Source: an uncultured Fibrobacteraceae bacterium (GTDB lineage Bacteria > Krumholzibacteriota > Krumholzibacteriia > LZORAL124-64-63). Taken from it: a stretch of DNA of 64,000 nt. Of the stretch, positions 7,330 through 64,000 are shown one piece after another (the stretch's first letter is position 1; each line of letters begins with the position of its first letter). The DNA is taken from assembly GCA_964545545.1 (NCBI GenBank), contig CAZJGK010000001.1:35375-99374 (forward strand), in the 5' to 3' direction. A program made the translations under genes and the position numbers. The notes beneath the pieces were generated by a model. It did not search any database and was not told the DNA's origin. It saw only the letters and a program-made list of their open reading frames with translations.

Positions 7330-7396
7330 TTTGAACACCCTGTCTCCTCGTTGTCTGCGACGGGGATCCTGCGCCCCAAAACTCCCGGGGTCGAGT

Positions 7397-28424: not shown

Positions 28425-28930
28425 TTTTCTCCGTGGTCCTGAGGGGTTTCCGCGGCCGGACGGAAATCCAGCGCGGCCGAATTGACGCAGTAACGCAGGC
28501 CCGTGGGTTTCGGACCATCGCGAAAGACATGGCCCAGATGGCCGCCGCACTTGGCGCACAGGATCTCGGTGCGGGGCACGCCCAGACTGAGGTCCTGTTT
28601 CTCGCGGATGGCCGCGTCGTTGATGGGCTGGAAATAACTGGGCCAGCCGCTGCCCGAATCGAACTTGGCCGACGAGGAAAACAAGGCCGCCCCGCAACCC
28701 GCGCAATAATAGGTGCCCTTGTCGTGATTGTTGTAATACTTGCCGGTGAACGGCGCCTCGGTGGCGCTGCAGCGCAGAACCCGGTACTGGTCCGGATTCA
28801 ATTCCTTTTGCCACTGCTTGTCCGACTTTTCCACGGCGGATTTTCCCTGTTTCGGTTCGGGACCGGCCATGGCGACGGCCGCAGCCGCCAGCATACCGGT
28901 CAACAGAACCAAGGCTACGATCTTGCTCAT
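28421..28930 (-). CDS. msrB: Peptide-methionine (R)-S-oxide reductase MsrB, secreted
   Basis: SelR domain: [28 protein letters not shown]...[19 protein letters not shown]...RYCVNSAAL. Signal peptide [32 protein letters not shown]. Confidence 0.85.
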
Positions 28931-29029
28931 GGTCATCTCCTTCGGGATTCAAGATAAAATCATCCAGGCCTTCGTGCCTTATTCAGGATAATAATTATCT
29001 GCTACACCCGCAGGGGACCGCAGTTCCCG

Positions 29030-31706: not shown

Positions 31707-31994
31707 CGATTGCTCCCATTCCAGAAGGCGGGGAAACAACCGTACAACAGGTCGCCCACCCCCACAAGAGCCCATCCAGCCCAGGTAGAGACCCTGGCCG
31801 GCTCCCCCGAATTCCGTGGGGATGGGCCCGGTGAGGTACCCCACGGCTTTCAACTCCTTGAAATCCTCCGAAATAAACTTGTTCTCTCGGTCATGGGCCC
31901 CCGCGCGCTCGACGCAACAGAATGCCTCGGGCTGCGTATTCAGCCCTCAACACACGATCGAAAGCCAATGCTGGTCTTCCTCCAACAGGCGGGT

Positions 31995-36550: not shown

Positions 36551-36713
36551 TCTCAATGAGCAATCGGCGATTATTCCGCTTAATAATCCTGGATGACCAC
36601 CGGCCTGCTGACTACCTTGGCCCCGGCCACTGAAGCCCCCGCGGAACCTCCGCCGGGTGCTGCGGCCGGAGTCGCCGACAGACCGTCAAGGTCGCAAGGC
36701 GCGGAATACGATC

Positions 36714-43422: not shown

Positions 43423-43423
<1 letters not shown>
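41357..43423 (-). CDS. Large polytopic membrane protein (about 13 TM helices) with a C-terminal soluble domain. Candidate GT-C-fold glycosyltransferase (ArnT/PMT-like).
   Basis: Its start overlaps the SDR stop (TGATG). Multiple hydrophobic helices through residue 400. About 290-aa C-terminal extracytoplasmic domain. No firm family motif identified. Confidence 0.5.
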
Positions 43424-44256
<833 letters not shown>

Positions 44257-45562: not shown

Positions 45563-45940
45563 TCAGTCGTCGGCCTTGGCCGCCATCTTCATCCTCGGCA
45601 ACAAACTCAGGTCGAAAATCTTGGTCTTGTTGGTCCGCACCAGGCGGATTTCCTCGATCACCCGTCGGATCCCGGCCAAGGCCGAAGTAACCTCGAAATT
45701 GCCGTACCTGAAGCCGAAATTGCGCAGGGTGCGCATGGCCGAAACAAGCTTCTGTTCCGCATGGGCGTACTTCTGGTCCGACAGGTACATGAACCCCTCA
45801 CAGGCCTCGTTCAGACCCATCCAGAAAGCCTCGTCGGATCCTGAGGCGCCGGCCAAGCCCTCCGCCGCCTGATGTGCGGCGTCGGTGAATTTCCTGCCGT
45901 TGAAGGCGGTGATGGTCCGGTTGAGAGCTTCATCGTTCAT
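45563..45940 (-). CDS. Hypothetical protein (about 125 aa), co-directional with def
   Basis: Internal ATG at 45940 with GGAGG 6 nt upstream. Product MNDEALNRTITAFNGRKFTDAAHQ... I reject the track's N-terminal extension. Confidence 0.5.
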   Translation of the reverse strand: MNDEALNRTITAFNGRKFTDAAHQAAEGLAGASGSDEAFWMGLNEACEGFMYLSDQKYAHAEQKLVSAMRTLRNFGFRYGNFEVTSALAGIRRVIEEIRLVRTNKTKIFDLSLLPRMKMAAKADD

Positions 45941-45992: not shown

Positions 45993-46544
45993 TCAAAGCT
46001 CGGCGTCGTCCTCGTCCTGGTCCTCATTCTCAAGGAAGCGCTCGGCTTCGGCTTCGAAAGCGAACCGTGTAATATCGGTGATGCGATCGACATAGAGCAC
46101 GCCGTCCAGGTGATCGCATTCGTGCTGGGTCACGATCGCCGGGAATCCCTCCAGGGCGAACTCCTCCAGCTTACCTTTTTCGTTGTAGGCCTTGACCCTG
46201 ATTTTGGCCGGGCGCTCCACCCAACCCCTCAGACCGGGAACCGAAAGACAACCTTCGAACATGCCCAGCTGGTCGTCTTCATCCAGGACGGTGATCTCCG
46301 GGTTGATCAAAACCCGGTATTGTTGATCGCCGTTCTCGTCGGCCTCACCGCCGGCGATGGCCAGGCGAACCGGATTGTGGACCTGGGGTGCGGCCAGACC
46401 TACCCCGTTGTACTCCGCCATGGTTTCGAACATGTCCCGGATCAGATTCTGGATTTTGGGACCAGAAATCTGGCCCGGAGCGATGGGGGAGCATTTCCGG
46501 CGCAAAACCGGGTGCCCCATGCGCGCCACCTTGAGGATCGCCAT
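45993..46544 (-). CDS. def: Peptide deformylase
   Basis: Motifs GVGLAAPQ, EGCLS and HECDHL. Start MAILKVARMGHPVLRRK. Confidence 0.9.
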   Translation of the reverse strand: MAILKVARMGHPVLRRKCSPIAPGQISGPKIQNLIRDMFETMAEYNGVGLAAPQVHNPVRLAIAGGEADENGDQQYRVLINPEITVLDEDDQLGMFEGCLSVPGLRGWVERPAKIRVKAYNEKGKLEEFALEGFPAIVTQHECDHLDGVLYVDRITDITRFAFEAEAERFLENEDQDEDDAEL

Positions 46545-46812
46545 GGCAAATCCCTTTCCTTGTCATCAGGGGTCTGGGTCCGCACCGGCGGACAGGAACT
46601 TCACCACCCAATGATAACTTCTGGGAACGCTCATGCAATATCGGGACCGCCGGGAAAACAAGTAAAACCGGGCCACGAGGCCTGCTTATCCGGGAAACCG
46701 GAAGCCGTTGCCCCTGCGGCGGCAGCTTTTTCCATCGGCATGGTCAAAAGAGGCCCAACGACCAAGGGGCCCGGACGACGCCGGGCCCCTGGTCACGAAT
46801 CGCACCCAAAAC

Positions 46813-47613
46813 CTATCTGAAGAGGGACTTCACACTTCCCCAACTAGTTTCCTCGGACGCAACCACCGTACCGAGATCCTGGAAGGTGATGTTGCCCCAG
46901 ACCACGTTGAAATTGGCACCGACGCCGGCTCCGGACATGTTGTTGAACTGCATGTGACCGCCGACGTAGGCGGGAGTCAGCATGCCGAACGACCCGTGGC
47001 CTTCGGCAGGGTTGCCCTCGTCGAAGGGAATCGGACCGCTGGTGTACAGGGTGCCGTCATCGTAGGTGTACTCGATGGTGGCGGGTTCGGCCAAGGTCAT
47101 CTCGACGTTGGGGGTGTAGATGATCCCCAACCGGACCGTGGTCCCCTTGACGTAGGAAACACCCTGGCTTCCGGTAAACGAGTAGAACGGCAGCCGTCCG
47201 CCGAAGCAGGCCACTTCACCGTCGGGGGTCCGCACATTGAATCGACCATCGACGTTCGGCGACCACCAGGGTGAGATCTGCAGACCGCCTTCACCGTCGC
47301 CTGTGCCCGAGATGGTCACATCGGCGGAGAAGGATAACCCATCGGTGTTCTGGAACTGCTGAGCGGTCGAATTATCGGTGGAGAACCGCCAGACATGCAG
47401 GTTGGCCCAACCCAGGGGGCCTGCAGCCTCGTCGTTGATGTCGATGAGGGCGGGATAGTTGTTGTTGACCGTGAGGATCGAAGCGAACGAATCGTCGAAA
47501 ACCCGCTCGATGACCACCGCGCTGGTCGGCGTATCGGTGGCCTGGGTGATTCCGGCCGTTAATGCCAGCACGGCAACGGCGACCAGAACGCTGATCTTGA
47601 TGAGCTTGAACAT
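46813..47613 (-). CDS. Secreted hypothetical protein
   Basis: AAGGAGAAA RBS. Signal peptide MFKLIKISVLVAVAVLALTAGITQA. Thr/Gly-rich beta-type composition. Last gene of the minus-strand T9SS/TBDR cluster. Confidence 0.65.
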   Translation of the reverse strand: MFKLIKISVLVAVAVLALTAGITQATDTPTSAVVIERVFDDSFASILTVNNNYPALIDINDEAAGPLGWANLHVWRFSTDNSTAQQFQNTDGLSFSADVTISGTGDGEGGLQISPWWSPNVDGRFNVRTPDGEVACFGGRLPFYSFTGSQGVSYVKGTTVRLGIIYTPNVEMTLAEPATIEYTYDDGTLYTSGPIPFDEGNPAEGHGSFGMLTPAYVGGHMQFNNMSGAGVGANFNVVWGNITFQDLGTVVASEETSWGSVKSLFR

Positions 47614-47719
47614 AATGTTTCTCCTTCAGTTGTTGTGGCTTCTAACTCGAATTCAAGTCGTGTGCTATGGCCATCGTCGTTTCACCACCTCCTTTTTCCC
47701 CGCATCCTTCGCGTCGGTT

Positions 47720-49393
47720 CTATTTGATTATGATGCATCGCTTCCACTCTGTCCGGCCATGGGCCTCCAGCGAATAGAGATAGATGCCGCTGGGAAGTCC
47801 CTGGGCATCCAGGGTCACGTGCTGCATCTCCTTGGCTGAAGCCTCGCTGGCGACCGTGCGCAGGCAGCGGCCGCGGACATCGTACAAACGCAGGGTCACT
47901 TCGCCGGCCTCGGCAACCCGGTAGGAAATCCGGGTTGAATTCCGGAAGGGATTGGGCGCGTTCTGGTCCAGTTCGATCATCTGTTCGGAGACCTTCGGTC
48001 CATCCGGTACGGCGGAAACATCGATGAAACCCGCTCTCTGCAGGCCGGCCCGGATATCCGCGTTCCCCATCATCCGGTCCCAGATGCCCCCGTTGAGATA
48101 GTTCTCGATCATGATGACGATGGGACCCTCATCGATCCCCAGGTAGTCCGAGCCCCACCAGAACTGGGTGAGGTTGAACGCATCCTTGAAACCATACTTC
48201 CCCCAGAGCATGGAGCCGTAGTTGTCGTACATGTTATGCAGAGCGGGCAGGACGATCTCGGGCGCAAAGGCGATGGAACCCGCCGCCGCGGTGGGGGTGA
48301 TCGTCCCGTTGTCGTTCTGGGCCGGGGGGGCGCCGTGGGCCAGGTAGCCGCCGGGATCGTCCGAGGCCGTCAGGCCCCACAGGTCCGCGCCGTAGCCGGC
48401 CCAGCCACTGGGATTGGCGATGCAGTATTCCCGGGCGGCAATGGTCGCCCGGCGGGAATTCTCGAAATAATCGATGCCGTGCAGACGCATATACGCGTCC
48501 CTCAGGTCACGAAAATCAATCCAGCAGTGGGAATACTGATGGCCGAACAGCGGCGGAAAGTTCACATAGATCTGGCCGTATTGCAGGCTCCAGTTGTAAC
48601 CGCTCGTCCAGTAGGCCCAGGTATAATCGGGGACCGGATGGGTGGGCGAACCCAGGGCCAACAGGTACAGGACCATGGCCTCGTTGTACCCCACCCAGGT
48701 GCCGTAACCGCTGAAACCCGTGTTCGGCTTCCAGCCCATGCGGATGCCGTTGCCGCCGTTGCGAACGAACTCCCAGTCCACGCGGTAGTACAGGGAATCC
48801 GAAAGGGCCCGCACCTCGACCTCGCCGGGATCCTCGCCGGTGAAGTACTGCTTGGCGTCGATGACACCGGCCATGAGCAGGGCCGTGTCGATGGTTGACA
48901 ATTCCGAGCTCCAGGTTCTCAGGCCGGAATTGATATCCAGGAAATGGTAGAACAGGCCCTTGTAGCCGTTCGTATTGTATTCGGTGTCGCCCTGGGGTCC
49001 GTTCCACAGGGTCTGCATGCCCAGCAGGATGCGGTCGCGTCCCTCGCTGCGGGATATCCAGCCGTGGTCGATGGCGATGCAGATGGCGGTGATGCCGAAA
49101 CCCTGGGCTGCGATGCTGCAGGCGGACCCGGGCTGGCTGCGGTCCCGGATCAACCCATTGACCGGATTGGCCTCGTCCCAGAAGTACAGGAAGCCCGTGC
49201 GCTGCAGGCTGTCCAGCAAGGCCTCGTCCGTCAGGGATTTCAGGGCGGGAACTGTCAGGCTACGCTGCGAATTCCCGGCGAGGACAGGGCCGGCCGACGA
49301 CCCGATCAGGAACAGGGCGACCAGCAGTCCCAGCCTGATCCTGCTCCCCGATAGACCGTGCATCCCACCATGATATGTCGTTTGCTTGATCAC
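47720..49393 (-). CDS. (alpha/alpha)6-type glycoside hydrolase, glucoamylase-like (GH15/GH144-related, tentative), with a T9SS C-terminal sorting domain
   Basis: GTG start with GAGGAG upstream, then a signal peptide. FLYFWDEANPVNG resembles the glucoamylase general-acid region LWEEVNG. The C-terminus ends GIYLYSLEAHGRTEWKRCIIIK. The family assignment is from memory only. Confidence 0.7.
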   Translation of the reverse strand: MIKQTTYHGGMHGLSGSRIRLGLLVALFLIGSSAGPVLAGNSQRSLTVPALKSLTDEALLDSLQRTGFLYFWDEANPVNGLIRDRSQPGSACSIAAQGFGITAICIAIDHGWISRSEGRDRILLGMQTLWNGPQGDTEYNTNGYKGLFYHFLDINSGLRTWSSELSTIDTALLMAGVIDAKQYFTGEDPGEVEVRALSDSLYYRVDWEFVRNGGNGIRMGWKPNTGFSGYGTWVGYNEAMVLYLLALGSPTHPVPDYTWAYWTSGYNWSLQYGQIYVNFPPLFGHQYSHCWIDFRDLRDAYMRLHGIDYFENSRRATIAAREYCIANPSGWAGYGADLWGLTASDDPGGYLAHGAPPAQNDNGTITPTAAAGSIAFAPEIVLPALHNMYDNYGSMLWGKYGFKDAFNLTQFWWGSDYLGIDEGPIVIMIENYLNGGIWDRMMGNADIRAGLQRAGFIDVSAVPDGPKVSEQMIELDQNAPNPFRNSTRISYRVAEAGEVTLRLYDVRGRCLRTVASEASAKEMQHVTLDAQGLPSGIYLYSLEAHGRTEWKRCIIIK

Positions 49394-49445
49394 CTGTTGT
49401 TGCTCCTCGTGCTTGCCATCATGGTGCCCCCTTGCGGTGCCTCGC

Positions 49446-50456
49446 CTAGAACTTGACGACCATGGTCACCCTGTGCGTACTGCCCAGGTGGTCATGGTTG
49501 GCCCACGCGTAGTTGACTTCGTAATTCGATTTTCCCAGCTCGCCGTTGACCCCGAAACCCAGGGTCAGCCCCAGTTCCCCATCGGTCTGGAACAAGGTCT
49601 GGTATCCGCCCCGCAGGGCAAACAGCCGCCACATCGTCCACTCCAGACCTATGTTCATGCTTTCGCTGTTGTCGTTGGGATGAATTCCTTCGACCAGGAA
49701 CAGGAAGGAGGAATTCTCGCCAGCCTGGACGGGAAAGCTCAGGCCGATCCGGAAAATGCCCGGCAGAGGGAACTGATCGGTGGATTGTTCTCCCGGCAGG
49801 GCGCTGTTGTCGCCGTAGGACGATGGGTCGGGGTCGAACTGGATGCCGAGCCCCCGTCCCGAGTAGCTGGACCGCGTGCCCAGGTTGGCCAGGCTGAAGG
49901 CCATCAATGCGCCGCCTTCGGTAAGACGGTAGGTCGTGCCCAGGTTGAAGGTCACCATCTTGTCCGAAACCGTCCAGATGCGTTCGGTAACGTAGTTCGC
50001 CTGGATCCCCGCCGAGAACCGGCTGGTGATCTGTTTGCCGAAGCCCACGCCCAGGGCCACGTTGGAAACCGTATAGCTTTCTCCGGTCCCCAGGGGCCGG
50101 TCCACCGTGCGCACGTCGATGTTCCCGGAGTTGAGAGCCGTGACGCTTACCAGAAAGTTGCCGACGCCGGCGACCGGCAAGCCCATGGCGACATAATCAA
50201 GGCTGATGCCCTCGAACCAGATGGCGCGGGAATACTGGACCACGGACTGGTCGATGAGCCCCAGGGCACCGATGTTGTAGTAGACGGCCTCGATACCGCC
50301 GGGCAGGGCCGAGCCGGCATTACCGACGGCCGTGCCCCGGGCGCTGGGCTCGATGCGCAAAAAGGTGCCGATGGTGCTCCCTACCTGGGTCTGGGCAAGG
50401 GCGCCGCCTGCGGCGCCGCTTGCGAGAATCACCAGGGCCAGGACAACTTTTCTCAT
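49446..50456 (-). CDS. T9SS-associated outer-membrane beta-barrel protein, PorV/PorQ-like
   Basis: Signal peptide MRKVVLALVILASGAAGGALAQ. N-terminal TIGTFLRIEPSARGTAVGNAGSALPGGIEAVYYNIGALG resembles the PorV signature (FL.I..GARA.GMGGA..A..DD.SA.YWNPAGL). The C-terminus ends in F. Confidence 0.6.
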   Translation of the reverse strand: MRKVVLALVILASGAAGGALAQTQVGSTIGTFLRIEPSARGTAVGNAGSALPGGIEAVYYNIGALGLIDQSVVQYSRAIWFEGISLDYVAMGLPVAGVGNFLVSVTALNSGNIDVRTVDRPLGTGESYTVSNVALGVGFGKQITSRFSAGIQANYVTERIWTVSDKMVTFNLGTTYRLTEGGALMAFSLANLGTRSSYSGRGLGIQFDPDPSSYGDNSALPGEQSTDQFPLPGIFRIGLSFPVQAGENSSFLFLVEGIHPNDNSESMNIGLEWTMWRLFALRGGYQTLFQTDGELGLTLGFGVNGELGKSNYEVNYAWANHDHLGSTHRVTMVVKF

Positions 50457-50502
50457 TTCTTTCCCCGTGTCGTGTCGTCTGGACGCGTCAAACTGTTTCC
50501 CC

Positions 50503-53500
50503 CTACTTCACGATCGCAAATTTTCCGGTGGCCGTGCCGGCCGCACCACCGTCCACATGGAAGATGTAGAGCCCGGGCGCCACATCCAGCAGGTCCTTGG
50601 TCCGCAGGTCCCAGGCCACGTAACCGTCGTTGGAGCCGTCGTGGTGCAGGGTCTGCACGAGTTCGCCCAGCAGGTTGTAGATGCGGATGGTGCACCGGGC
50701 CGGCAATCCACGGAACTCGATCCGCCGCTCACCGCGGCCCGAAACGGCGAACCGCTCGGGCTCGAAACTCGCCGAGGCCATATAAGGATTGGGCACCACA
50801 TAGGGGGCCATCGGCTTGCTGGCGAGTTTGGGGTCGATGAACGCCCCCTTGGTGGAAAAGGCGAAGACATCATCGGACGAGAAGGGGCGGATGAGCTTCA
50901 GCTCGTAGACATCGCCTTCGCCCGGCAAAATGGTGGGGACCCCGTCAACACCGTCGATCTCGAACCTCCAGGTCACGATGGGGGTGGCGGGATCGGATTC
51001 CAGGTAGGTGACAACATCGATCAACTCGTTCATGTCGCTGAGCGTGTTGTCGCCGTTGCGATCGCGGAAACGGAAATCGAGCTGCCGGTCTCCATCCACG
51101 GAGTGGGCGATGACCGTGAATTTGGCCGGGGTCGCCGTGAACGGATAGCCTCCGAGGGACGTATCCACGACGCTGTCGTAAAAACGCAGGGTGATATCGT
51201 CCGGGAAACCAGGCCGGACCTGGTTGATCGACAGCACTTCCTGGTACGAAACCTTGATCAGGGCATCGGTGGCGCTGCCGGATTGCAGGCCGGTGCCCGC
51301 CGAATCGATGCTCACCGTCTCGGGTGTCTGCACGATAGGCAACAGGCCTTCTCCCACCGGCCCGATGCCTTGTCCGATCAGGTCCCGGCCCGTCTCGAAC
51401 AGGACCTCGCCGGTGGTCACATCCGTCAGGAGGTACTGGGAGGCGCGCAGACTGTCCGGATGCGGGGTGGTGAAGCTGATCTGGAAGTCGTGATTATCGG
51501 GGACCTCGTTGGAGTTGACCACGGTGATGGCCAAGGCGCCCGTGCCCCGGCCCGCCACCTGGTCGGCCTCCTCCGCGGTGGCCGGCATATAGCCCAGGAC
51601 CCGCGGCTCGGGGCGTACGGCCACCACGTTGACAGGCAAGACCAGCCCCCCGCGCGGTGTCCGCGAAGGAGCGATGGCGTTCTCCGACGGATAAAAATTG
51701 AACTTGGCATCCGTGGACCCGAAATCATACGCCGTCACCGCGTAATAATACTGCTGTCCGTTGGTCACGCCGTGATCCGTCCAGGTGTGGGTCAGCCCGG
51801 TCTCCGCGCCCAGGTAATAGGCCACCCCCTCGATGGTCAGGTCCGAGAACCCGCTGTGCCCGTCGATGCGGTCGAACTGGGCGATGGGCTTGCCGTTGCC
51901 CAACGGACCGCTGCCCGTCCCGGTCGTGATGACCTGGGGATCGCGGAAGTCCGGGTCGGTCGATCGGTAGATGCGGTAACCCTCGAAATCGTACTCCCCC
52001 GTCACGGGATCGGCGCCCCGCTCAGCGACGTCGTTCCACGACAGCCGGATCTGGCCGTCCCCGGTCTCCGCCGTGAGTGTGGGCACATGCGGAGGGACGG
52101 CGAACCGGTAGTTGGCGTTGTAGATCTGCTGAACGGTCTGGGTGTTGCGCGACAACTCCTCCAGGCTCGCGCCGTAGGCCAGGGCCAGGCTGAAGCGTTC
52201 GGTCTGCCCGGCGTCGAGGCGGAAGGGGCCCGAGGCGAACAGGAAGCCGATGTTGTAGTTCGAGGCCAGCGGCGGGTCGAACCGCGACGCCGAATCCGGA
52301 TTGGCGAACTGGGTGTACAATCGCTCCGGCCAGTTGTGGTTGTCGGTGAAGAAAACGATGCCGTCGGTTTCCTGGTTGGGATTGTTCTGGCCCGGGCGGA
52401 TGCGGTTGAGCTTGAATCCCGTCAGGCCGATCTGGTCCGATTCGTTCAGGTCGGTGCGGTCGAAATTCGGTTCCCCGGCGGTGGGGATGCCGTCGCCTTC
52501 GCCGCTGTCATGCGTATCCGGGAGCCCGTCGGCGCCCACGTCGTGATTCTCCACCGTCCAGTCCATATCCTCGTCGCCGGTCCACCACAGCCCCGCACGA
52601 TAGGCCGGCGTGTCGACGACCGGGCCGTACACCGCTTCGAACCGTGCCTGATTGTAATTGGCCGCCACATAGGACAGGATCTGGTCCTCGCCGACGAGCA
52701 TGGTGCCGGGCCCGCTGTCCCGCCGCTCGTCCGTGATGCCGTCCTGGTCGTTGTCGATATGGTCGGTCGGATTGCCCGGGGTCTCCATGTAGGCATAACC
52801 GAGATAACCCGTGGTGGCGCAGGATCCCGTCAGGTCCCGACCGTGGCCGCCGTTGTCCCAGGTGTAGACCAGATTGATCCGCTGATTGTTGAAGACATCC
52901 TGGTAGTAGGCGTTGTCGTCGTCGGATTCGTAGATGCCGTCGCACGACAGGGCCGAACCGCCCACGCCGGAATCCATGTACAGGCCGAAAATGATGTTGT
53001 CGTCGTAGTCGGTGGTGCCCTCGTTGGTGATGTCGTAGTGCCAGAAGATCACGTTGCGCGCCTGGGGATTCGCCCACTGGAAGCCGCGCACCTCGATGCG
53101 CAGGCCCAGCCCGTGACGGGTGGAATCGCGGCTGTCGGGATAGAACGGCCAGGCGTCGTAGTAATCGTCGTCCATGACCGAATAGCTTTCCTGGTCGGCA
53201 ACGATCTGCTTGCCGAAATAACCGTTCCAGGAACCGGGCCACCCGGGATCGCTGGCTTCATCCAGGCGGTCCGGCCAAAAATCCGGCCAGGTGCGCGGAT
53301 CGTTGCTCATGGCGGGGGAACGGCCGGAATTGATGCCGGGATCGGGCTGGAAATAGCCCGGCCGAGGCTCGAAGCGCATGACCCGGTTGTAGTAGGGACT
53401 CGTGCCCTGCCGCTCCCGGAAGCCCGTTTCCATGATGTACGCTTCGGCGCCGTCAGCCTGGTTGACCTTGGCCAGGACGAACGGCGTGATCCCGTCGCTG

Positions 53501-53844
53501 TAGTTCATCCCGCTGCCCTTGGGCACCTCGACGGAGTGGAACACGCTCAGGTCGACATTGCCGGGATCCCGCGGGTAATCCCCCACCATGCCGTAGTTCC
53601 AGAAAACCGTGCGCACGTTGTTGGCGTCGTGCTGGCCGGCCCGTTCGGCATCCTCCCGCCCCCGCTCGGCCTTGGGCACCGGCGTCACCACGCCCGCGAA
53701 CGACCCGGCAGGTACGATCGACATGCCCAGGCTCCCGGCCAGGATCATCAGCATGGCTGGCGCCATACCCAACCATGCGCTCAATTTGCTCGTGCATCCG
53801 GTCAAGCAATTCCCCTTCACGCTACGGTTCCGCCAGGAGGTCAT
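50503..53844 (-). CDS. Large secreted protein with an FN3-like domain and a T9SS C-terminal sorting domain. Function unknown.
   Basis: ATG (M8) with GGGGGG upstream, overlapping the TBDR stop as TGATG. FN3-like PTLTAETGDGQIRLSWNDV...EGYRIYRS. The C-terminus ends GLYIFHVDGGAAGTATGKFAIVK. The exact start is uncertain (53865, 53844 or 53766). Confidence 0.7.
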   Translation of the reverse strand: MTSWRNRSVKGNCLTGCTSKLSAWLGMAPAMLMILAGSLGMSIVPAGSFAGVVTPVPKAERGREDAERAGQHDANNVRTVFWNYGMVGDYPRDPGNVDLSVFHSVEVPKGSGMNYSDGITPFVLAKVNQADGAEAYIMETGFRERQGTSPYYNRVMRFEPRPGYFQPDPGINSGRSPAMSNDPRTWPDFWPDRLDEASDPGWPGSWNGYFGKQIVADQESYSVMDDDYYDAWPFYPDSRDSTRHGLGLRIEVRGFQWANPQARNVIFWHYDITNEGTTDYDDNIIFGLYMDSGVGGSALSCDGIYESDDDNAYYQDVFNNQRINLVYTWDNGGHGRDLTGSCATTGYLGYAYMETPGNPTDHIDNDQDGITDERRDSGPGTMLVGEDQILSYVAANYNQARFEAVYGPVVDTPAYRAGLWWTGDEDMDWTVENHDVGADGLPDTHDSGEGDGIPTAGEPNFDRTDLNESDQIGLTGFKLNRIRPGQNNPNQETDGIVFFTDNHNWPERLYTQFANPDSASRFDPPLASNYNIGFLFASGPFRLDAGQTERFSLALAYGASLEELSRNTQTVQQIYNANYRFAVPPHVPTLTAETGDGQIRLSWNDVAERGADPVTGEYDFEGYRIYRSTDPDFRDPQVITTGTGSGPLGNGKPIAQFDRIDGHSGFSDLTIEGVAYYLGAETGLTHTWTDHGVTNGQQYYYAVTAYDFGSTDAKFNFYPSENAIAPSRTPRGGLVLPVNVVAVRPEPRVLGYMPATAEEADQVAGRGTGALAITVVNSNEVPDNHDFQISFTTPHPDSLRASQYLLTDVTTGEVLFETGRDLIGQGIGPVGEGLLPIVQTPETVSIDSAGTGLQSGSATDALIKVSYQEVLSINQVRPGFPDDITLRFYDSVVDTSLGGYPFTATPAKFTVIAHSVDGDRQLDFRFRDRNGDNTLSDMNELIDVVTYLESDPATPIVTWRFEIDGVDGVPTILPGEGDVYELKLIRPFSSDDVFAFSTKGAFIDPKLASKPMAPYVVPNPYMASASFEPERFAVSGRGERRIEFRGLPARCTIRIYNLLGELVQTLHHDGSNDGYVAWDLRTKDLLDVAPGLYIFHVDGGAAGTATGKFAIVK

Positions 53845-56534
53845 CACGATCCCCCCAGGCTCCACCGCACACCGAACTCGATGCGCCGTGGAGGGTAGAA
53901 ACGGGTCGGATCCCGCAGGGCTATTTCCTCGCTGGGACTCACCGTGCGGGAATAGTATGGACTGCCGGTGGTGGCAAAAACGGGTCCGTTGAAGAACCGT
54001 GAATCGAACAGGTTGAACACGCGCAGGAATACGCCGCCTGCGCCGATGGTCTTTTCCGCGCGCAGATCGACCAGGAGGCCCGAGGGCTTGCGGCCCGAGT
54101 TGGTTTCGCTGCTGAAGCCGAAGGCCGCCTCGCTCACCGGCGTGTAGGGCTGTCCGCTGGCGAACTTGGCCACCGCACTGAGGGAATAATCGCCGGATTT
54201 GTTGATCGCCGCGGTGAGGTTGACGGTATGCCGCTGGTCCCAGTTGAACGGGGCGAGGCGGGGCCGGGGATCCTCGCCGGCCGCGGCACGGTTGGCGGTT
54301 TCGCTGGGGTCGCTGGAATTCCCCAGGGCCTGCTGCCAGGTGTAATCCAAAGCGAGGCTGAAAGGCCCCACCTGGCGGTGATCGATGGACAGGGTCACTC
54401 CGAGGGCATTGCCGAAATCGACGTTTGTCAGGCGCGTGTACTCGGCTCCCGTATAGGTTTCCACGAACTCCACGCCCAGCAACTGCCGGATATCCTTGTA
54501 GTAGATGGTCAAATCGAAACCGAGGTCGGGCGTCAGAATCTGCTTGTAGCCGGCCTCGTACTGCACGGTTTCCTCGGGCTTGACGTCCGGATTGCCCATG
54601 AGTCCGTACCGGACCTGGCCAGCCTGCAGGCGGGCCAGGATATCGTAGTTGGAATTGGTGAACATGGTCCCCACCGAGGGGAACTGGTGGAAGTGACCGT
54701 AGGCGAAATGGATGGCCGCCTTGTCCTCGATGGGATAGGCCACACCCAGACGCGGCGAGACCGTGGCCTTGGCCGAAGTACTCTGGGGGTGTGACTCGGG
54801 CGCGCCGTCGATGGCGTTGGCCGGATTGGCCAGGTCGCTGGGGATGGTCGACCGCGAATCGAAATAGTCCAGGCGCAACCCGAAACGCAGGATCAGGTTC
54901 TTGTTCTCCATCTGGTCCTGGATGTAGGCCGCACCCATCAGCGGGTGATAAGTGGCGGGCTCCGGGTAGTCCGGCGGTTGGTTGACGTGGCGAACGAGGG
55001 TCCCTTCCCCGTAGGTGAAGTAGACGTCGTTGCCGAACTGGACCGCCGGCAGGCTGAGTTCCAGTCCCGTCTTCATCTGGTGCGCCTGGTTGAGCTGACT
55101 GACCACCGAACCCTTCATGAGCCAGGCGTTGGTTTTCTGCCGGTAATGATTCAACTGCACGCCCTGGTAGAACCAGTCGCCAAGGTTGGTGGAAGAGTCG
55201 AGCTGAGGCGTCTCGTCGTACCGCACATCGGAGCTATCAGCATAGACATGGTCCGTGTAGTCGAAGTAGTTCTGTCTGACGCTCAGATCCAGGAAGGTCG
55301 AAGCACCCAGGGTCTGGGTCAGGTCCAGTCCGTGGGAAATCGAGAACGACCGCTGGATGGACAACCCGTCCGGCATGTAGCGGAACTGGTAGTTCTGCGG
55401 ACGCCCCTTGCGCGCGCTGACAACCGCCTGGTAACTCAGCTTGGTGTTGGTCAGGGCGTTGCTGGCGACCTTGCACACCCCCGACCACTCGTTGTTGTAG
55501 CTCAGGGGCATGCGCTTGCCGTCTCCGGTGGCCACGAACGGGCTGCCCTGGACGGTCGGGTCTTCCACGTTGTCGGTGGGATTGAAGCGTCGCTCGGCAT
55601 AGATGTAGTCCTGGAATAGATAGCGCCGACCGCTGATCAGGAAGGTCGTCCTGGCCAGAGGCAGGGGACCGCTGAGGGTCATCTGGTAACTCTGGGTTCC
55701 CGTCAGGTGGGGCGTATCGTCCGTCAACCGCTTCTTCGCCCGACCAGGGAAAAAGAACCCGCCGTCATAGATTTCGCCCTCGGCCTGGAACTTCTCGGTC
55801 CCCTGTTTGAGCACGGCGTTGACCACCCCGCTCATGGCCTGCCCGTATTCCGCATCGAAGGTTCCGCTGATCACCTGCACTTCCTGCAGCAGGGAACGGT
55901 CGATCTTGAGGCTCGAGGAGTTGTCGAACGCGTTGTTCACGCTCACGCCGTCCACCTGGTACTGGACCTCGTCCTTGCGCCCACCGCGGAAATGGCCTTC
56001 GACCACACCCGCCTGGAGGTTGACGACATCATCCAGATCCTGAACCGGAAGCTGTTCGATCTCCTTGCTGCTGAGGTTGGACTGGGAACTCGTTATCTTC
56101 AGGTCGACCGGCGGCCGCTTGGCCACGACCACCACTTCGGCGGCCTTCAGGGTGGTGTTCCCCATCTTGAATTCGATCCGCATGGTCTTGTCGGCCGAGA
56201 CCAGGACGCCGGTGATGGTCACCGGGTTGAAACCCAGCCGGCTGGCCTTCACGTCGTAGGTGCCGGGGGGAAGGTTGAGAATGGTGAATTCCCCCTGGGC
56301 GTTGGCATACGCGCCCAGGCGCAGGCCCACCACCTGGACGGTGGCCGCCACCACCGGCCGCCCCTCCTGATCGGTCACCGTCCCGGCTATGCTTCCGGTG
56401 GTCCCGGCCTGCAAAGTGGGTGCAACAAAGACAAGACAGCAGACGGCAACCAATGCCGCCGTCCACCAGCGCCCGGGAAAATGGTTTCTTGCCCCCACGC
56501 TCATCACCAGGTTGCCGCCTCCGGTTGAAATCAT
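53844..56534 (-). CDS. TonB-dependent outer-membrane receptor with an N-terminal carboxypeptidase-regulatory-like domain
   Basis: CarboxypepD_reg-like SIAGTVTDQEGRPVVAATVQVV...PGTYDVKASRLGFNPV. Plug domain (VVVVAKRP...DLDDVVNLQAGV). Long beta-barrel. The start is uncertain (56579, 56534 or 56504). No SusD-like gene follows. Confidence 0.85.
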   Translation of the reverse strand: MISTGGGNLVMSVGARNHFPGRWWTAALVAVCCLVFVAPTLQAGTTGSIAGTVTDQEGRPVVAATVQVVGLRLGAYANAQGEFTILNLPPGTYDVKASRLGFNPVTITGVLVSADKTMRIEFKMGNTTLKAAEVVVVAKRPPVDLKITSSQSNLSSKEIEQLPVQDLDDVVNLQAGVVEGHFRGGRKDEVQYQVDGVSVNNAFDNSSSLKIDRSLLQEVQVISGTFDAEYGQAMSGVVNAVLKQGTEKFQAEGEIYDGGFFFPGRAKKRLTDDTPHLTGTQSYQMTLSGPLPLARTTFLISGRRYLFQDYIYAERRFNPTDNVEDPTVQGSPFVATGDGKRMPLSYNNEWSGVCKVASNALTNTKLSYQAVVSARKGRPQNYQFRYMPDGLSIQRSFSISHGLDLTQTLGASTFLDLSVRQNYFDYTDHVYADSSDVRYDETPQLDSSTNLGDWFYQGVQLNHYRQKTNAWLMKGSVVSQLNQAHQMKTGLELSLPAVQFGNDVYFTYGEGTLVRHVNQPPDYPEPATYHPLMGAAYIQDQMENKNLILRFGLRLDYFDSRSTIPSDLANPANAIDGAPESHPQSTSAKATVSPRLGVAYPIEDKAAIHFAYGHFHQFPSVGTMFTNSNYDILARLQAGQVRYGLMGNPDVKPEETVQYEAGYKQILTPDLGFDLTIYYKDIRQLLGVEFVETYTGAEYTRLTNVDFGNALGVTLSIDHRQVGPFSLALDYTWQQALGNSSDPSETANRAAAGEDPRPRLAPFNWDQRHTVNLTAAINKSGDYSLSAVAKFASGQPYTPVSEAAFGFSSETNSGRKPSGLLVDLRAEKTIGAGGVFLRVFNLFDSRFFNGPVFATTGSPYYSRTVSPSEEIALRDPTRFYPPRRIEFGVRWSLGGS

Positions 56535-56587
56535 GATTCCCCCGCCGGTGGAGGAGCCGTCGGCCCACTCCACCGGCAAGCGGGATA

Positions 56588-58477
56588 CTACTTGATATAG
56601 AGTACCTTGCCCTTCAGCACGCCGCGGGGAATTCCCGTCACGGGATCCTTCATTCCCAGGCGGTACATGTAGACGCCGGCACTCGGCCTCTTGGTCGTGA
56701 ATATGGACACCCCGTTCTCGCCCTCACCCATTTCGCCCAGATTCCGGCGCTCGATGAGCCGGCCCCGCAGGTCGAAGACCTCCAGGGTGACCAGGTTGCG
56801 GTCAGGCATGGCAAAGCGGATATCCGGCTGCGACGAAGGACCGCTGCCGCCGGTCACGGTGGCGTAGCCCAGCCCGTTTCCCGAGGGATCGGGAACACCG
56901 CTGACACCCGTGGCCAGATGGGCCCAGGTGGGGCAGCACTCGCCCGGGAATTCCCGGTACCACCAGGAACGCGTCCCGTAGCTGTCGGTCGAGGGAATGA
57001 ACGAATCCCCATCCATGAGGACCACCCCGAAGAAGAAGGCTCCATCACCCAATCCTGCGGGATACCCCAGGCTGGTCAGGTCAATGGCCATTTCGGCCGT
57101 ATACCCGGTGTCCGCCTGGGTACCGAGAGTATCGACGGTCGTGCCGGCCATCAGGTCCACGGCCACCTGGGCATGGCCGTCGGTCACCAAACTGAGCAGG
57201 TCGTCCTGGGCTATGGCCTGGCCGTCGGGGCCCACCTGGAACGAGAGGCGCCGGGTCAGCAACTGGTTGTCCGTATCGCGTTGGACGCGGTCGTCGATGG
57301 TCACGATGAAACCGTCCCAGCGGTTCAGGTCGGGATGGTACTGGACCACCTGGTCATGCGCCACGAATCCCAGGTAGAGCATGTCGCCGCGATGGTAGAC
57401 CTTGACGGTGGCGTCACCCGGATCGACCACGAAGGCCACATCCCCGTTGACCGTGGGCTGGAACTGGCCGGCGCGGTACGGTCCGACGCCGTCGTAGGTG
57501 TCCACCAGGGTGCCCGGATCCCAGCGGATGTCGAACGAGTAGATGTCCGGATCGGTCCACACGGCCTCGTCGAGCTTACCGTCGACGACCGGAGCGGTAT
57601 CGATATTCTTGATCACCATTTCGGGCCCGATCTCGGGCACGGGTCCGGACGCCGTGGTGACATCCGGGCTCGCAAAGATCCGCACCTCGTTGTAAAATGA
57701 TGTATTGCCCCAGGGCCCCTGCCACCAGACCCGATTGGAGCTGAACGTATTCACGTTGATGGGCCAATACCAGTCGCAGTCGTAGAGCGAGATGTTCCAT
57801 TCGACCACATCGCCGCCGGGCTGGGTGACATCGTAGCCCATGGGCGTCAGGTTGAAACGCATCTCCACGGTGTAGCCGACATCCGGAGTGGAGTCGTCAT
57901 TGGTGATCCCGTCGACCACCGTCACGGCATCCCAGTTGGCGATCTGCTCGGCGGTGCGGGGCGCGCCGTGGGGCAATTCGGCCCAGGATCCTATGAAGCT
58001 GGGCATGGTGCCCGGCGCCTGGGGGTCGGTCATTTCGTCGTGCCACCAGGAGTAGAAATACTCGGCGACAGGCTTGGGTGAATAGTCGGCGGTGTGATCC
58101 TTCATCCCCATCAACAGGCCATCAAAGCGGTTGAACTGGGCGCTGCCACCGATGGACTGGTCCGGGATCACGGCCCCGAGGTAGAGCTGGTTGCCGCGCA
58201 CCAGGAACTTGAGGGTCGCATGTGTGGGATCGACGGGATTCCAGCCGCTTTCGGTCTTCCAGCCGCTGCCGGGGATCCCCGCATCAACTCCGTAATCAAT
58301 GACATAGGTCTCGGCCTGAGCCCAGTCCGCCTCGTCGAGCACACCGTCCAGGGTTATGGAATCGAGCGCGGTGCGCGCCCAGATGGCGTCCAGCCGGGGC
58401 GTGGCCGCCGAAGCCAGGGAAGCACTGATCATCACCAGGACCAGGGCTACCGGCAGAATCGTGGACAATTTTCTCAT
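56588..58477 (-). CDS. T9SS-secreted protein with two CBM9-like carbohydrate-binding domains
   Basis: GAGGAGGAGG RBS. Signal peptide MRKLSTILPVALVLVMISASLASA. Two copies of the ...DG.LDEA.W... start motif (ITLDGVLDEADWAQAE and PVVDGKLDEAVWTDPD). The C-terminus ends GVYMYRLGMKDPVTGIPRGVLKGKVLYIK. Confidence 0.8.
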   Translation of the reverse strand: MRKLSTILPVALVLVMISASLASAATPRLDAIWARTALDSITLDGVLDEADWAQAETYVIDYGVDAGIPGSGWKTESGWNPVDPTHATLKFLVRGNQLYLGAVIPDQSIGGSAQFNRFDGLLMGMKDHTADYSPKPVAEYFYSWWHDEMTDPQAPGTMPSFIGSWAELPHGAPRTAEQIANWDAVTVVDGITNDDSTPDVGYTVEMRFNLTPMGYDVTQPGGDVVEWNISLYDCDWYWPINVNTFSSNRVWWQGPWGNTSFYNEVRIFASPDVTTASGPVPEIGPEMVIKNIDTAPVVDGKLDEAVWTDPDIYSFDIRWDPGTLVDTYDGVGPYRAGQFQPTVNGDVAFVVDPGDATVKVYHRGDMLYLGFVAHDQVVQYHPDLNRWDGFIVTIDDRVQRDTDNQLLTRRLSFQVGPDGQAIAQDDLLSLVTDGHAQVAVDLMAGTTVDTLGTQADTGYTAEMAIDLTSLGYPAGLGDGAFFFGVVLMDGDSFIPSTDSYGTRSWWYREFPGECCPTWAHLATGVSGVPDPSGNGLGYATVTGGSGPSSQPDIRFAMPDRNLVTLEVFDLRGRLIERRNLGEMGEGENGVSIFTTKRPSAGVYMYRLGMKDPVTGIPRGVLKGKVLYIK

Positions 58478-59571
58478 GGTTGAACCTCCTCCTCGCCGGG
58501 GGCGTGGATTTGCGGGAAATCACATATCTGCGGCCTGAGCTCCGTCTGAGGCCTGGGCGTGAATAATTTGGGATTCGGGGCTCCACAGGATTGCCTGATT
58601 TTCAAGGTGGTGGGAAGGACGACCCGGCGGGGAGTATCGGAGGCGTTGTCGTCCAGGACATCCAGCATCATTTCAACCGCCCGCCCGCCCAACCCGCTGG
58701 CATCGACACTAACGGTGGTCAAGGCAGGATTCATATACCCGGCCAGGGTGACATCGTCGAAACCGACCACGGCGATATCACCCGGAACTTCTATCCTCCC
58801 TTCACGCAGGGAGGCCAGCAGGCCGATGGCCATGCTGTCGTTGGCCACAAATACGGCCGTAGGCCGGGGCTTGTGTTTCAGGATGACCGAAGCGGCCTTG
58901 AAACCCGTCGTTTCACGAAAATCACCCGGCACGATGAGAGCCCGGTCGGGATCCTGGCCGGCTGCGGCCAAAGCCCTGCGGAAACCGCGATGGCGGTCGT
59001 TGGCATCGACATTATCCGCAGGCCCGGCAACCATGGCAATGTCGCGGTGCCCCAGCCCGAGCAGGTGGTTCACCGCATTTTCCGCCCCATGGACATTATC
59101 CACGGCCACGGAATGGCAACCTTCGATTTCCCCGCAGGGGTTCAGCAGGACGACGGGAACCCGCCGGCGCGCCCTGATGGCGGTTTCGATGGATCTCTCG
59201 TCGGGGGCCATCATGATGACGCCGTCGATGCGGCCCAACATGGCCCTGCTGGCCATGACCACTTCCTCGAGATTGAAGCAGGAACTGGACAGCAGGATCT
59301 GGAATCCGTTGCGGTGGGAAACGAGATCGATCCCGCGGATTATTTCCGAATAGAATTCACCGAAAAGGTCAGGCAGCAGCACGCCGAAGGTATGCGTGCG
59401 GCGGGTCGTCAGACTCTGGGCGGCAGGATTGGGCCAATAGTCCAGCTCGGCGGCGACTTTGAGGATGTTGCCGGCGGTTTCGGCATTGACCAGAGATTGA
59501 TTGTTGTAAACCCTGGAAACTGTGGCTATCGATACCCCGGCGGCGCGGGCGACGTCCCGAATGGTGGCCAC
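58474..59571 (-). CDS. LacI-family transcriptional regulator
   Basis: HTH ATIRDVARAAGVSIATVSRV. Periplasmic-binding-fold core with a roughly 40-aa C-terminal extension. Its TGA overlaps the ATG of the CBM9 gene. Start taken at GTG 59571 (AGGGGGA upstream); an ATG at 59631 is an alternative. Confidence 0.8.
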   Translation of the reverse strand: MATIRDVARAAGVSIATVSRVYNNQSLVNAETAGNILKVAAELDYWPNPAAQSLTTRRTHTFGVLLPDLFGEFYSEIIRGIDLVSHRNGFQILLSSSCFNLEEVVMASRAMLGRIDGVIMMAPDERSIETAIRARRRVPVVLLNPCGEIEGCHSVAVDNVHGAENAVNHLLGLGHRDIAMVAGPADNVDANDRHRGFRRALAAAGQDPDRALIVPGDFRETTGFKAASVILKHKPRPTAVFVANDSMAIGLLASLREGRIEVPGDIAVVGFDDVTLAGYMNPALTTVSVDASGLGGRAVEMMLDVLDDNASDTPRRVVLPTTLKIRQSCGAPNPKLFTPRPQTELRPQICDFPQIHAPGEEEVQP

Positions 59572-59677: not shown

Positions 59678-59693
59678 ATGTAAACGGTTTCAT
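59678..59693. promoter_or_regulatory. Imperfect 16-bp palindrome ATGTAAACGGTTTCAT (LacI-family operator-like, TG..A.CG.T..CA) in the lacI/GH94 divergent intergenic region
   Basis: 13 of 16 positions are self-complementary. It lies between the divergent LacI and GH94 starts. Confidence 0.35.
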
Positions 59694-63631: not shown

Positions 63632-63645
63632 CGACATGACCGGGT

Positions 63646-64000
63646 TTCCTTCGGATTTCCTGTGGGGAGCGGCCACCTCGGCCTACCAGATCGAAGGTTC
63701 TCCCCTGGCCGACGGCGGAGGCATCAGCAACTGGCAGGTTTTCTCCCACACTCCCGGCAACACCCTGAACGGGGAAACCGGCGACACCGCCTGTGACCAC
63801 TACAATCTGTGGCGGCAGGACATCGCCCTCATGAGCGACCTCGGACTGCAGGCCTACCGGTTCAGCCTGGCCTGGAGCAGGATCCTGCCCCAGGGCACCG
63901 GAACGGTGAACATCGCCGGCCTGGATTTCTACGATCGGCTGGTGGACGGTCTGCTGGCCGCCGGCATCCAGCCGGTGCCGACCCTTTTCCACTGGGACAT
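63646..64000 (+). CDS. Second GH1 beta-glucosidase (partial, runs off the window end)
   Basis: [21 protein letters not shown]...[24 protein letters not shown]. Paralogous to the 637..2040 product. It starts 15 nt after the GH94 stop. Absent from the ORF track because it is truncated. Confidence 0.85.

Follow-up and report, generated by a model that had tools for sequence, protein, structure and literature searches.

A predicted LacI-controlled beta-1,2-glucan utilisation locus on a SusD-less outer-membrane import module

How might a glycan be imported through a TonB-dependent receptor when the genes around that receptor include no SusD? The question is raised by a 64,000-nucleotide stretch of DNA from an uncultured bacterium of the Krumholzibacteriota (assembly GCA_964545545.1, contig CAZJGK010000001.1, positions 35,375 to 99,374), referred to throughout as the window. 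Within it, open reading frame (ORF) calls and domain scans place seven tightly packed minus-strand genes at 46813-59571, with a GH94-GH1 gene pair running divergently. The seven genes are numbered p1 to p7 by increasing coordinate (Table 1). An original prediction, made from the sequence alone, had described them as a SusD-less, TonB-dependent-receptor-based unit resembling a polysaccharide utilisation locus (PUL) and dependent on type IX secretion (T9SS). Its gene order, strand and coordinates agree with our ORF calls, and the placement of LacI at the operon head, with GH94 and GH1 divergent, agrees with the domain scans. No SusD-family Pfam match was obtained in the seven cluster genes, nor in the precomputed Pfam lists of three related loci (L001, L002 and L083), and the SusD-less description therefore holds. 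What we add to that first reading is an assignment to beta-1,2-glucan and a generic four-part module. Judged from its sequences, the cluster is rather probably a LacI-controlled beta-1,2-glucan utilisation locus built on a SusD-less outer-membrane import module and working by the full mechanism proposed below.

The receptor and its constant neighbours

A scan of species-representative genomes returned at least 594 loci containing a p4-type gene, and the best 80 were used for comparison. These came from metagenome-assembled genomes (MAGs) labelled Krumholzibacteriia, Eisenbacteria, Ignavibacteria, Calditrichia, KSB1, Rhodothermales, Chlorobiales, Neomarinimicrobiota and various 'Bacteroidota'. 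Synteny was assessed by tblastn of the window proteins against those loci, and counts refer to loci with sufficient flanking sequence. In all 70 loci with room for it, the gene directly upstream of p4 is a receptor gene on the same strand, and a PorV-like gene follows p4 immediately in 65 of 66. Where p4 is at least 50% identical to the window protein and both flanks are complete (n=28), the neighbourhood also contains GH144 (28/28), p6 (28/28), LacI (25/28) and GH94 (21/28). The whole cluster is present in GCA_002790835.1 (p4 85% identical), in GCA_016709775.1 (72%) and in one Krumholzibacteriia MAG. The order found in relatives is GH1 and GH94 divergent from LacI, p6, receptor, p4, PorV-like gene and GH144, followed by one to three p1 paralogues. 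The identities of p4, receptor and PorV-like protein co-vary across loci (r 0.92-0.96), with p4 more conserved (median identity 58%) than its receptor and PorV-like partners (48 and 44%). Dozens of genomes belonging to several phyla share the entire arrangement. The clustering is therefore beyond chance, and the results support a glycan-utilisation unit that is conserved, co-regulated and based on a TonB-dependent receptor.

The receptor p5 consists of a CarboxypepD_reg domain (PF13620, E 2e-19), a Plug domain (PF07715, E 1.5e-7) and a barrel (PF00593, E 1e-27). It fails the SusC/RagA model TIGR04056, with 47.2 bits against 368.25 and a match confined to residues 64-185. A sequence search found no relative of it in the PDB, and it reached no siderophore-receptor cut-off. 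Among NCBIfam models the barrel best matches subfamilies of haem and transferrin receptors, each far under its cut-off, and such matches might suggest that the genes are merely neighbours, the receptor importing iron or a cofactor beside carbohydrate-active enzymes (CAZymes) by accident. This reading is already contradicted by synteny, since gene order and coupling are kept across Krumholzibacteria, Eisenbacteria, Ignavibacteria, Calditrichia, KSB1, Rhodothermales and others, and the genes share overlapping stop and start codons and a common operator (see below). We consider it extremely improbable. A siderophore-type receptor was likewise rejected on synteny, as the receptor keeps its site in every related locus with room and the annotated flanks all hold CAZymes; the earlier call of a glycan receptor is thereby sustained.

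Of the features of a PUL, co-localised CAZymes (GH144, GH94 and GH1) and a dedicated regulator, LacI, with a conserved predicted operator, are found here. As in the SusC/SusD PULs of Bacteroidota, the locus combines a regulator, a TonB-dependent transporter with a carboxypeptidase-regulatory-like domain, a partner gene directly after the transporter, surface glycan-binding proteins, and secreted endo- and downstream exo-enzymes. Paralogous loci within some genomes are a further likeness. Two p4-type loci (L038 and L075, 60% and 36% identical to the window p4) lie in one MAG, ERP124720_co1_156, and therefore single genomes can hold several paralogous modules, as with PULs. The differences lie in the outer-membrane components. 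SusD is lacking and the transporter falls well short of the SusC/RagA model (47 against 368 bits). SusD is a lipoprotein of about 550 aa built of tetratricopeptide repeats, whereas the partner here is a protein of about 1,100 aa with a T9SS-type C-terminal domain (CTD). A PorV/PorQ-family barrel is the obligatory third gene, and accessory proteins carry CTDs rather than lipoprotein signals. The cluster thus appears to work like a Bacteroidota PUL yet fails both of its defining features, the SusC-family transporter and the adjacent SusD.

Upstream of the receptor, most loci encode a protein with a carbohydrate-binding module (CBM), which varies in type (tandem CBM9-like, CBM9 or CBM4_9) and in length (516-1,054 aa). 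More distant loci (p4 35-40% identical) keep the trio of receptor, p4 and PorV-like gene, and their other neighbours differ. In Melioribacteraceae and Ignavibacteriaceae (L077, L079) the trio is accompanied by SSF, CBM9+CTD, GH9+CTD, GH16 (+malectin+CTD), GH3, MFS and ROK genes; in Rhodothermales (L070) by LacI, CBM4_9+CTD, an ABC permease and GH130; in a 'Bacteroidota' MAG (L071) by LacI, CBM4_9+CTD, ABC permeases and two GH63-like genes; and in Caldithrix (L074) by GHL10+CTD, LacI and CBM4_9+CTD. Because the same module adjoins other CAZyme sets in Ignavibacteria, Caldithrix and Rhodothermales, it looks like a general glycan-import apparatus of Fibrobacteres-Chlorobi-Bacteroidetes (FCB)-type phyla, of which the window would carry the beta-1,2-glucan version.

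We tentatively go one step further, with somewhat less than even confidence, and regard the trio, usually following a CBM-plus-CTD protein, as a previously unrecognised, widespread glycan-import apparatus outside the Bacteroidia, in which a T9SS-exported protein of about 1,100 aa, its CTD retained on a dedicated PorV paralogue, would do SusD's job. Its extension to Krumholzibacteria, Eisenbacteria, Ignavibacteria, Calditrichota, KSB1, Rhodothermales and Marinimicrobia is put forward with the same reserve. No description of the receptor/p4/PorV-like module was found in the searchable full-text literature, which omits most subscription journals; the paper on the Melioribacter genome refers to a SusCDE operon only. 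PUL detection is built on the SusC/SusD pair and therefore largely misses lineages without SusD, for which the trio would be a second, equally regular signature. If this holds true, the trio would make it possible to find glycan-uptake loci systematically in many uncultured FCB-type phyla that abound in sediments, soils and groundwater.

Sorting domains and the partner of the receptor

The original prediction assigned a T9SS CTD to three cargos of the cluster (p2, p4 and p6), and named the PF18962 and TIGR04183 thresholds as the test of that claim. The p2 protein lies above both, with PF18962 scores of 35.7 bits for the full protein and 40.4 for its tail (cut-off 27) and a TIGR04183 score of 32.4 (cut-off 23). 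The tails of p4 (15.1 bits, E 0.029) and p6 (12.8 bits, E 0.15) fail the two models as single sequences. The C-terminal 90 residues were then aligned for 117 p4-family members and, separately, for 30 p6 orthologues. Each profile was compared with 15 tails taken from the window and from related loci, most of these having scored above PF18962. Against these CTD tails hhalign gave a probability of 97.6% (E 4e-12) for the p4 profile and of 99.4% (E 1e-21) for the p6 profile. Because the profile-profile comparison matches where the single sequences fail, we read the p4 and p6 tails as divergent CTDs, and all three tails appear to be homologous to T9SS CTDs. The earlier claim accordingly stands directly for p2, and for p4 and p6 by profile-profile comparison only. 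A second putative T9SS cargo is encoded at 19317-22853 (+), a 1,178-aa BNR/sortilin-type (F510_1955 family) glycosyl-hydrolase-like protein that exceeds TIGR04183 (26.4 against 23) and passes FlgD_ig; its predicted sorting domain provides independent evidence for T9SS cargo in the source genome.

The PorV-like protein p3 scores 139.1 bits with NF033709, the PorV/PorQ family model (cut-off 90), and remains below the equivalogs for PorV (NF033710, 42.1 against 250) and PorQ (NF033711, 50.5 against 220). It is a distinct member of the PorV/PorQ family. Neither a PorP/SprF match nor, in a PDB sequence search, any relative of p3 was found. All 41 positional p3 homologues scanned match NF033709, and 14 of the 41 give weak BamG matches. 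The original prediction had spoken of the cluster's own PorV-like shuttle. The family assignment stands, whereas the role of general shuttle for all three cargos has become less attractive than that of a dedicated p4 anchor, as in PorQ-PorZ. The anchor is more likely because p3 lies immediately downstream of p4 in nearly every locus and because the CTD is the best-conserved region of the p4 family (majority-residue frequency 0.64 against 0.38-0.57 elsewhere).

Tethering of p4 to p3 by a retained CTD is suggested by the strict gene pairing, by the conservation of the p4 CTD, by the similarity, weak though recurrent, that the p4 tail shows to the PorZ and PorU CTDs (its only database matches) and by published precedents. 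PorZ and PorU are cargos known to retain their CTDs, held on PorQ and PorV respectively, and cognate PorV-like barrels have been suggested to shield CTDs from cleavage (PMC10202324). BamG provides another precedent: the structure of this FadL/PorV-like barrel is solved, and it acts as a platform for attachment next to the larger barrel BamA (PMC12578637). The PorQ-PorZ and PorV-PorU pairs of Porphyromonas gingivalis resemble the present pair in joining a PorV-family barrel to a large surface protein tethered by an unremoved CTD (PMC10202324), CTD retention being inferred in our case. They differ in that p3 fails both equivalogs, the p4 passenger is unrelated to PorZ and PorU, and the pair is encoded with a receptor and CAZymes rather than with secretion machinery. 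In the SprB-SprF system of Flavobacterium johnsoniae (type B CTD, PorP/SprF-like barrel) a cargo gene is likewise followed by the gene of a dedicated PorV-like barrel needed for that cargo (PMC10202324); here, in contrast, p3 belongs to the PorV/PorQ family and the link is to nutrient import instead of gliding adhesins. BamG, a part of the Bacteroidota BAM complex, differs in serving outer-membrane protein assembly and in having lipoproteins rather than CTD proteins as partners. The module suggests a new use of T9SS, in which nutrient-import complexes are formed through cargo tethered to dedicated PorV paralogues.

The protein encoded beside the receptor by p4 was not the one first proposed as its partner. 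The original prediction gave that role to the CBM9 protein p6, which it placed beside the receptor instead of SusD. On that view the CBM9-like protein stands in for SusD, the PorV-like protein serves the locus as its own shuttle for all three CTD cargos, and p4 is mere surface cargo. A CBM-plus-CTD protein does lie immediately upstream of the receptor in nearly all flanked loci, and PorV is the shuttle in canonical T9SS (PMC10202324). However, the CBM protein differs in type and size among loci, and it is p4 that is coupled to the receptor gene (70/70) and to the PorV-like gene (65/66). The p6 CTD is less conserved than the p6 passenger domains, unlike that of p4, and a retained, partner-specific p4 CTD therefore fits better than a cleaved signal. 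These considerations make the earlier version rather unlikely. The constant partner of the receptor is p4, which occupies the 'SusD position' and is translationally coupled to the receptor.

The p6 protein may still contribute to glycan capture, and on sequence grounds it is a candidate surface glycan-binding protein. Its CBM9 assignment is upheld, although weakly (CBM9_1, PF06452, 26.4 bits against a gathering threshold of 23.4), and no single stretch passes alone. An hhalign self-comparison detected an internal repeat (residues 42-259 against 297-513, probability 98.8%), which we read as two tandem CBM9-like modules. Most p6 orthologues carry PF06452, some also PF18962 or PF13860, and NCBI gives several the name 'T9SS type A sorting domain-containing protein'.

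In p4, a conserved N-terminal half bearing Asp-rich motifs that resemble calcium sites is joined to an FN3-like domain, to Ig-like domains that vary and to a C-terminal CTD ending in GKFAIVK. No Pfam or NCBIfam family matches it apart from the PorZ/PorU tail resemblance. It had been called an FN3 cargo; there is no Pfam FN3 match, and an FN3-like beta-sandwich is indicated by the AlphaFold2 (AF2) model and a weak PDB profile match only. The AF2 model is confident for residues 586-1113 (FN3-like domain, Ig-like domains and CTD-like sandwich). Foldseek with this model returned only generic multi-FN3 chains (TM ~0.08), the p4 profile gave only marginal matches to the PDB, and hhalign linked the p4 passenger to neither p6 nor p1. 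Homologues are numerous, with 3,227 at E<=1e-5 in one database (the best 120 clusters being 66-87% identical) and 3,768 clusters of 50% identity at E<=1e-3 in a second, and all of them are unnamed or 'hypothetical'. A scan of the family gave weak FlgD_ig matches in 9 of 37 members and weak CHU_C (type B CTD) matches in 6 of 37. With thousands of members and no Pfam or NCBIfam model, the p4 family and its complexes are clear candidates for structure determination.

Residues 45-580 gave neither a predicted fold (AF2 pLDDT, the predicted local distance difference test score, below 50) nor a family, and the N-terminal half of p4 could be an enzyme instead of a binding or lid protein. In that case p4 would represent a novel glycoside hydrolase, lyase or esterase family acting at the surface, and the receptor would simply import its products. 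Many Asp, Glu, Arg, His and Trp residues of this half are invariant across the family, p4 is the most conserved protein of the locus, and no binding-module family matches it. On the other hand, the p4 family adjoins CAZymes for chemically different glycans (beta-1,2-glucan; the beta-glucans of GH9, GH16 and GH3; GH130; GH63-like), which argues for a generic role, and secreted endo-acting enzymes are already encoded in each locus. An enzymatic p4 thus appears improbable, and we retain p4 as the surface accessory of the receptor.

Predicted substrate and control

The p2 protein had been described as an (alpha/alpha)6 glycosidase and T9SS cargo. A glycosidase with a CTD above thresholds is what was found, and its family can now be specified as GH144 (PF10091, E 2.5e-82). 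It matches XcSGL (XCC2207; PDB 8xul) with E 1.2e-118 and about 55% identity across the catalytic domain, and CpSGL (PDB 5gzh) with E 5e-65. XcSGL is a beta-1,2-glucanase of narrow specificity, the GH144 members XcSGL and CpSGL are specific for beta-1,2-glucan, and a trio of E, F and Y residues defines the SGL clan (PMC12102758). By alignment, these residues (E239, F286 and Y367 of XcSGL, with the numbering inferred via a 14-residue offset) are kept in p2 within GYNEAM, LFGHQY and GGYLAHG. The p2 protein is therefore a homologue of GH144 endo-beta-1,2-glucanases and a predicted secreted or surface enzyme.

The divergent GH94 protein (PF06165, E 1e-118; PF17167, E 6e-114) has a ~440-aa N-terminal extension and, from a reading of its N-terminus, no signal peptide. 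Its best PDB match by phmmer is the GH94 domain of cyclic beta-1,2-glucan synthase (8rf9/8rf0, E 3.8e-238). This is 160 orders of magnitude ahead of the cellobiose phosphorylases, which together with chitobiose phosphorylases give E values of ~1e-77 to 1e-76; cellodextrin phosphorylases follow at 3e-11. A cyclic beta-1,2-glucan synthase itself (Cgs/NdvB, ~2,800 aa, with a glycosyltransferase domain ahead of GH94) was rejected, as the protein has 1,274 aa and GH94 domains only, and its best-scoring stretch covers synthase residues 1992-2777 only. Since the best match is to the synthase GH94 domain and the gene is linked to GH144, we propose a cytoplasmic beta-1,2-oligoglucan phosphorylase. The GH1 gene (PF00232, E 5.5e-54 over the first 121 residues), cut off by the window end, is full-length (448-453 aa) at the equivalent site in relatives. 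In a Krumholzibacteriia relative (L083) a GDSL/SGNH lipase-like gene (2700-3422) comes after the GH94-GH1 pair and has the same orientation, the equivalent site here lying beyond the window end; its product could be an esterase removing acyl substituents from glucans.

The same enzymes have been considered from another side. GH94 and GH1 form a classic cellobiose pair, CBM9 modules have been described in xylanases and cellulases, and the paralogous Ignavibacteria loci carry GH9 and GH16, so the locus could target cellulose, cellodextrins or mixed beta-glucans, with GH94 as a cellobiose or cellodextrin phosphorylase and GH1 as a cellobiase. Against this, no GH5, GH9 or GH16 lies within the cluster, GH144, whose cited members are specific for beta-1,2-glucan (PMC12102758), is present in all 28 orthologous loci, and the GH94 E values separate the synthase domain far from cellobiose and cellodextrin phosphorylases. 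A cellobiose or cellulose locus was rejected on the GH144 and GH94 evidence, and we rate this reading as quite unlikely. With GH144, a cyclic-glucan-synthase-like GH94 and GH1 taken together, the predicted substrate is most likely beta-1,2-glucan. The locus would then indicate that these bacteria harvest as a nutrient beta-1,2-glucan, which in Proteobacteria is periplasmic and related to symbiosis; little is known of its turnover in the environment.

The known beta-1,2-glucan sets, which include the GH144 SGL enzymes of Chitinophaga pinensis and Xanthomonas, similarly combine an endo-beta-1,2-glucanase, a GH94 phosphorylase and a beta-glucosidase (PMC12102758 for the enzymes). Here the GH94 protein is instead of the cyclic-glucan-synthase-like subtype, and uptake would proceed by a TonB-dependent receptor module and not by an ABC transporter or SusCD. 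Another such set is the GH94 1,2-beta-oligoglucan phosphorylase operon of Listeria innocua. Among SusD-less systems, the Xanthomonas 'CUT loci' of Proteobacteria combine a TonB-dependent receptor, CAZymes and a LacI-type regulator, as here. The CUT loci are not known to contain T9SS cargo, a PorV-like barrel or a p4-family protein, and they usually have an inner-membrane transporter, unlike the present cluster.

The repressor p7 contains the helix-turn-helix (PF00356, E 1.5e-16) and periplasmic-binding-fold (PF13377, E 3.7e-42) domains of its family. Reading of the LacI-GH94 intergenic sequence revealed TGTAAACGGTTTCA, 108 bp upstream of the GTG start of LacI. It conforms to TGNAANCGNTTNCA, a half-palindrome of the LacI family, and was then tested as a pattern. 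It is the sole exact match in the 64-kb window. An inverted-repeat search did not pick it up, the repeat being imperfect. In 1.4 Mb of related loci TGNAANCGNTTNCA has 52 exact matches. Of these, 40 precede the LacI start by no more than 300-400 bp, or the p6 start in loci that LacI does not head. The predicted operator thus keeps its position across phyla. This footprint supports a predicted autoregulated LacI control of both divergent units.

Taken together, these results are consistent with the following mechanism. The GH144 enzyme p2 and the CBM9-like protein p6 would pass through the inner membrane via Sec and, using their CTDs, through the outer membrane via T9SS, and would bind and cut extracellular linear or cyclic beta-1,2-glucan to sophoro-oligosaccharides. 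The sophoro-oligosaccharides would cross the outer membrane through the TonB-dependent receptor p5. The p4 protein, exported by T9SS and keeping its CTD, would be held at the surface by the p3 barrel, as PorZ is by PorQ and PorU by PorV, and would act as surface accessory of the receptor, filling the position of the SusD lipoprotein of Bacteroidota loci. The p1 protein would handle oligosaccharides in the periplasm or at the membrane, and an inner-membrane transporter encoded elsewhere would take up the sugars. In the cytoplasm, the GH94 phosphorylase and GH1 beta-glucosidase would yield glucose-1-phosphate and glucose. LacI would bind the operator at 59679-59692 and control both divergent units. 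The four-part module (CBM-plus-CTD protein, receptor, p4-family protein and PorV-like barrel) would be generic, serving other glycans with other CAZyme sets in Ignavibacteria, Calditrichota, Rhodothermales and related lineages.

Several observations weigh against this mechanism, in addition to the single-sequence scores of the p4 and p6 tails and the unassigned N-terminal half of p4. No T9SS core gene (GldK/L/M/N, SprA/Sov or PorU/PorZ) was detected among the scanned ORFs of the window. The related loci were retrieved via p4, and the sample therefore shows that the neighbours of p4 are constant, not the converse. Neither the cluster nor its Krumholzibacteria relative (L083) contains an inner-membrane sugar transporter. 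The solved 1,2-beta-oligoglucan phosphorylases were absent among the phmmer matches of the GH94 protein, and similarity alone cannot give the substrate specificity of a GH94 enzyme.

Gene layout and the rest of the window

Coding frames in the window, which has a G+C content of ~63%, were chosen on length and third-position G+C. The resulting features of the locus are collected in Table 1.

Table 1 Predicted features of the glycan-utilisation locus and its divergent neighbours
Feature	Coordinates	Strand	Basis or remark
p1, 266-aa secreted protein	46813-47613	-	lectin-fold, signal peptide
p2, 557-aa GH144 protein with T9SS type A CTD	47720-49393	-	PF10091, PF18962, TIGR04183
p3, 336-aa PorV/PorQ-family 14-strand outer-membrane barrel	49446-50456	-	NF033709
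p4, 1,113-aa secreted protein of uncharacterised family	50503-53844	-	no Pfam/NCBIfam model
p5, TonB-dependent receptor	53844-56579	-	PF13620, PF07715, PF00593
p6, 629-aa CBM9-like protein with predicted divergent T9SS type A CTD	56588-58477	-	PF06452, hhalign
p7, LacI/GalR-family repressor, first gene of the operon	58474-59571	-	PF00356, PF13377
Predicted LacI-family operator TGTAAACGGTTTCA	59679-59692	.	pattern match, LacI-GH94 intergenic region
GH94 glycoside phosphorylase, about 1,254-1,274 aa	59807-63631	+	PF06165, PF17167
GH1 beta-glucosidase, truncated by window end	63636-64000	+	PF00232

Both overlaps named by the original prediction were read directly in the sequence. The LacI stop overlaps the p6 start in ATGA at 58477-58474, and the receptor stop overlaps the p4 start in TGATG at 53846-53842. 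Its statement that gaps are 60 bp or less proved slightly too strong, because the last two gaps measure 52-82 bp (PorV-like gene to GH144) and 106 bp (GH144 to p1). The gap between GH94 and GH1 is 4 bp. Alternative starts exist for p5 (TTG 56579 or ATG 56534), p7 (GTG 59571 or ATG 59631) and GH94 (GTG 59807 or ATG 59867). A stop-free frame of 1,577 codons at 50503-55233 (-), which extends p4 upstream through the receptor gene, was rejected as an off-frame artefact of high G+C because its translation is rich in Arg, Pro and Gly and lacks ATG codons. The ORF listing placed the start of the p4 frame at 53865 and not further upstream. Scans for promoters and terminators performed at chance level, and Rfam found no RNA family within the window.

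The last gene of the operon, p1, encodes a signal peptide, a concanavalin-A-like lectin/glucanase jelly roll and a C-terminal helix ending in SWGSVKSLFR. The p1 family ends in this conserved helix motif (consensus SWGGVKALFR), which might be a sorting or interaction signal and was not recognised as a known one. Three tandem p1 paralogues occur in one related locus (L002, 16229-19110). The p1 protein is a candidate oligosaccharide-binding or accessory protein. Downstream, the cluster is bounded by a peptide deformylase gene (45993-46562). Just downstream of this boundary, among mutually overlapping candidate ORFs on both strands, ARAGORN called a tRNA-Ile(GAT) at 45835-45920 (+), whose 86 nt are unusually long for the isotype.

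A second carbohydrate group lies at 634-7566 and comprises GH1 (634-2040, +), a 1,075-aa GH2-like TIM-barrel protein (2009-5233, +), GH16 (5255-6241, -) and a ROK-family regulator or kinase (6067-7566, -). It contains neither a receptor nor a p4-type gene and may be a gene set for laminarin or beta-glucan. Five ORFs of 500-720 aa have coding-like third-position G+C and no Pfam or NCBIfam family (41357-43528, 7397-8911, 11213-12748 and 27258-28982, all -, and 31617-33257, +). Two adjacent acetate-kinase-family ORFs at 36612-39001 (+) overlap by ~50 bp; the first is full length (E 4e-104) and the second is a weaker, partial match (E 5e-40), and the pair may represent a duplication or a divergent paralogue.

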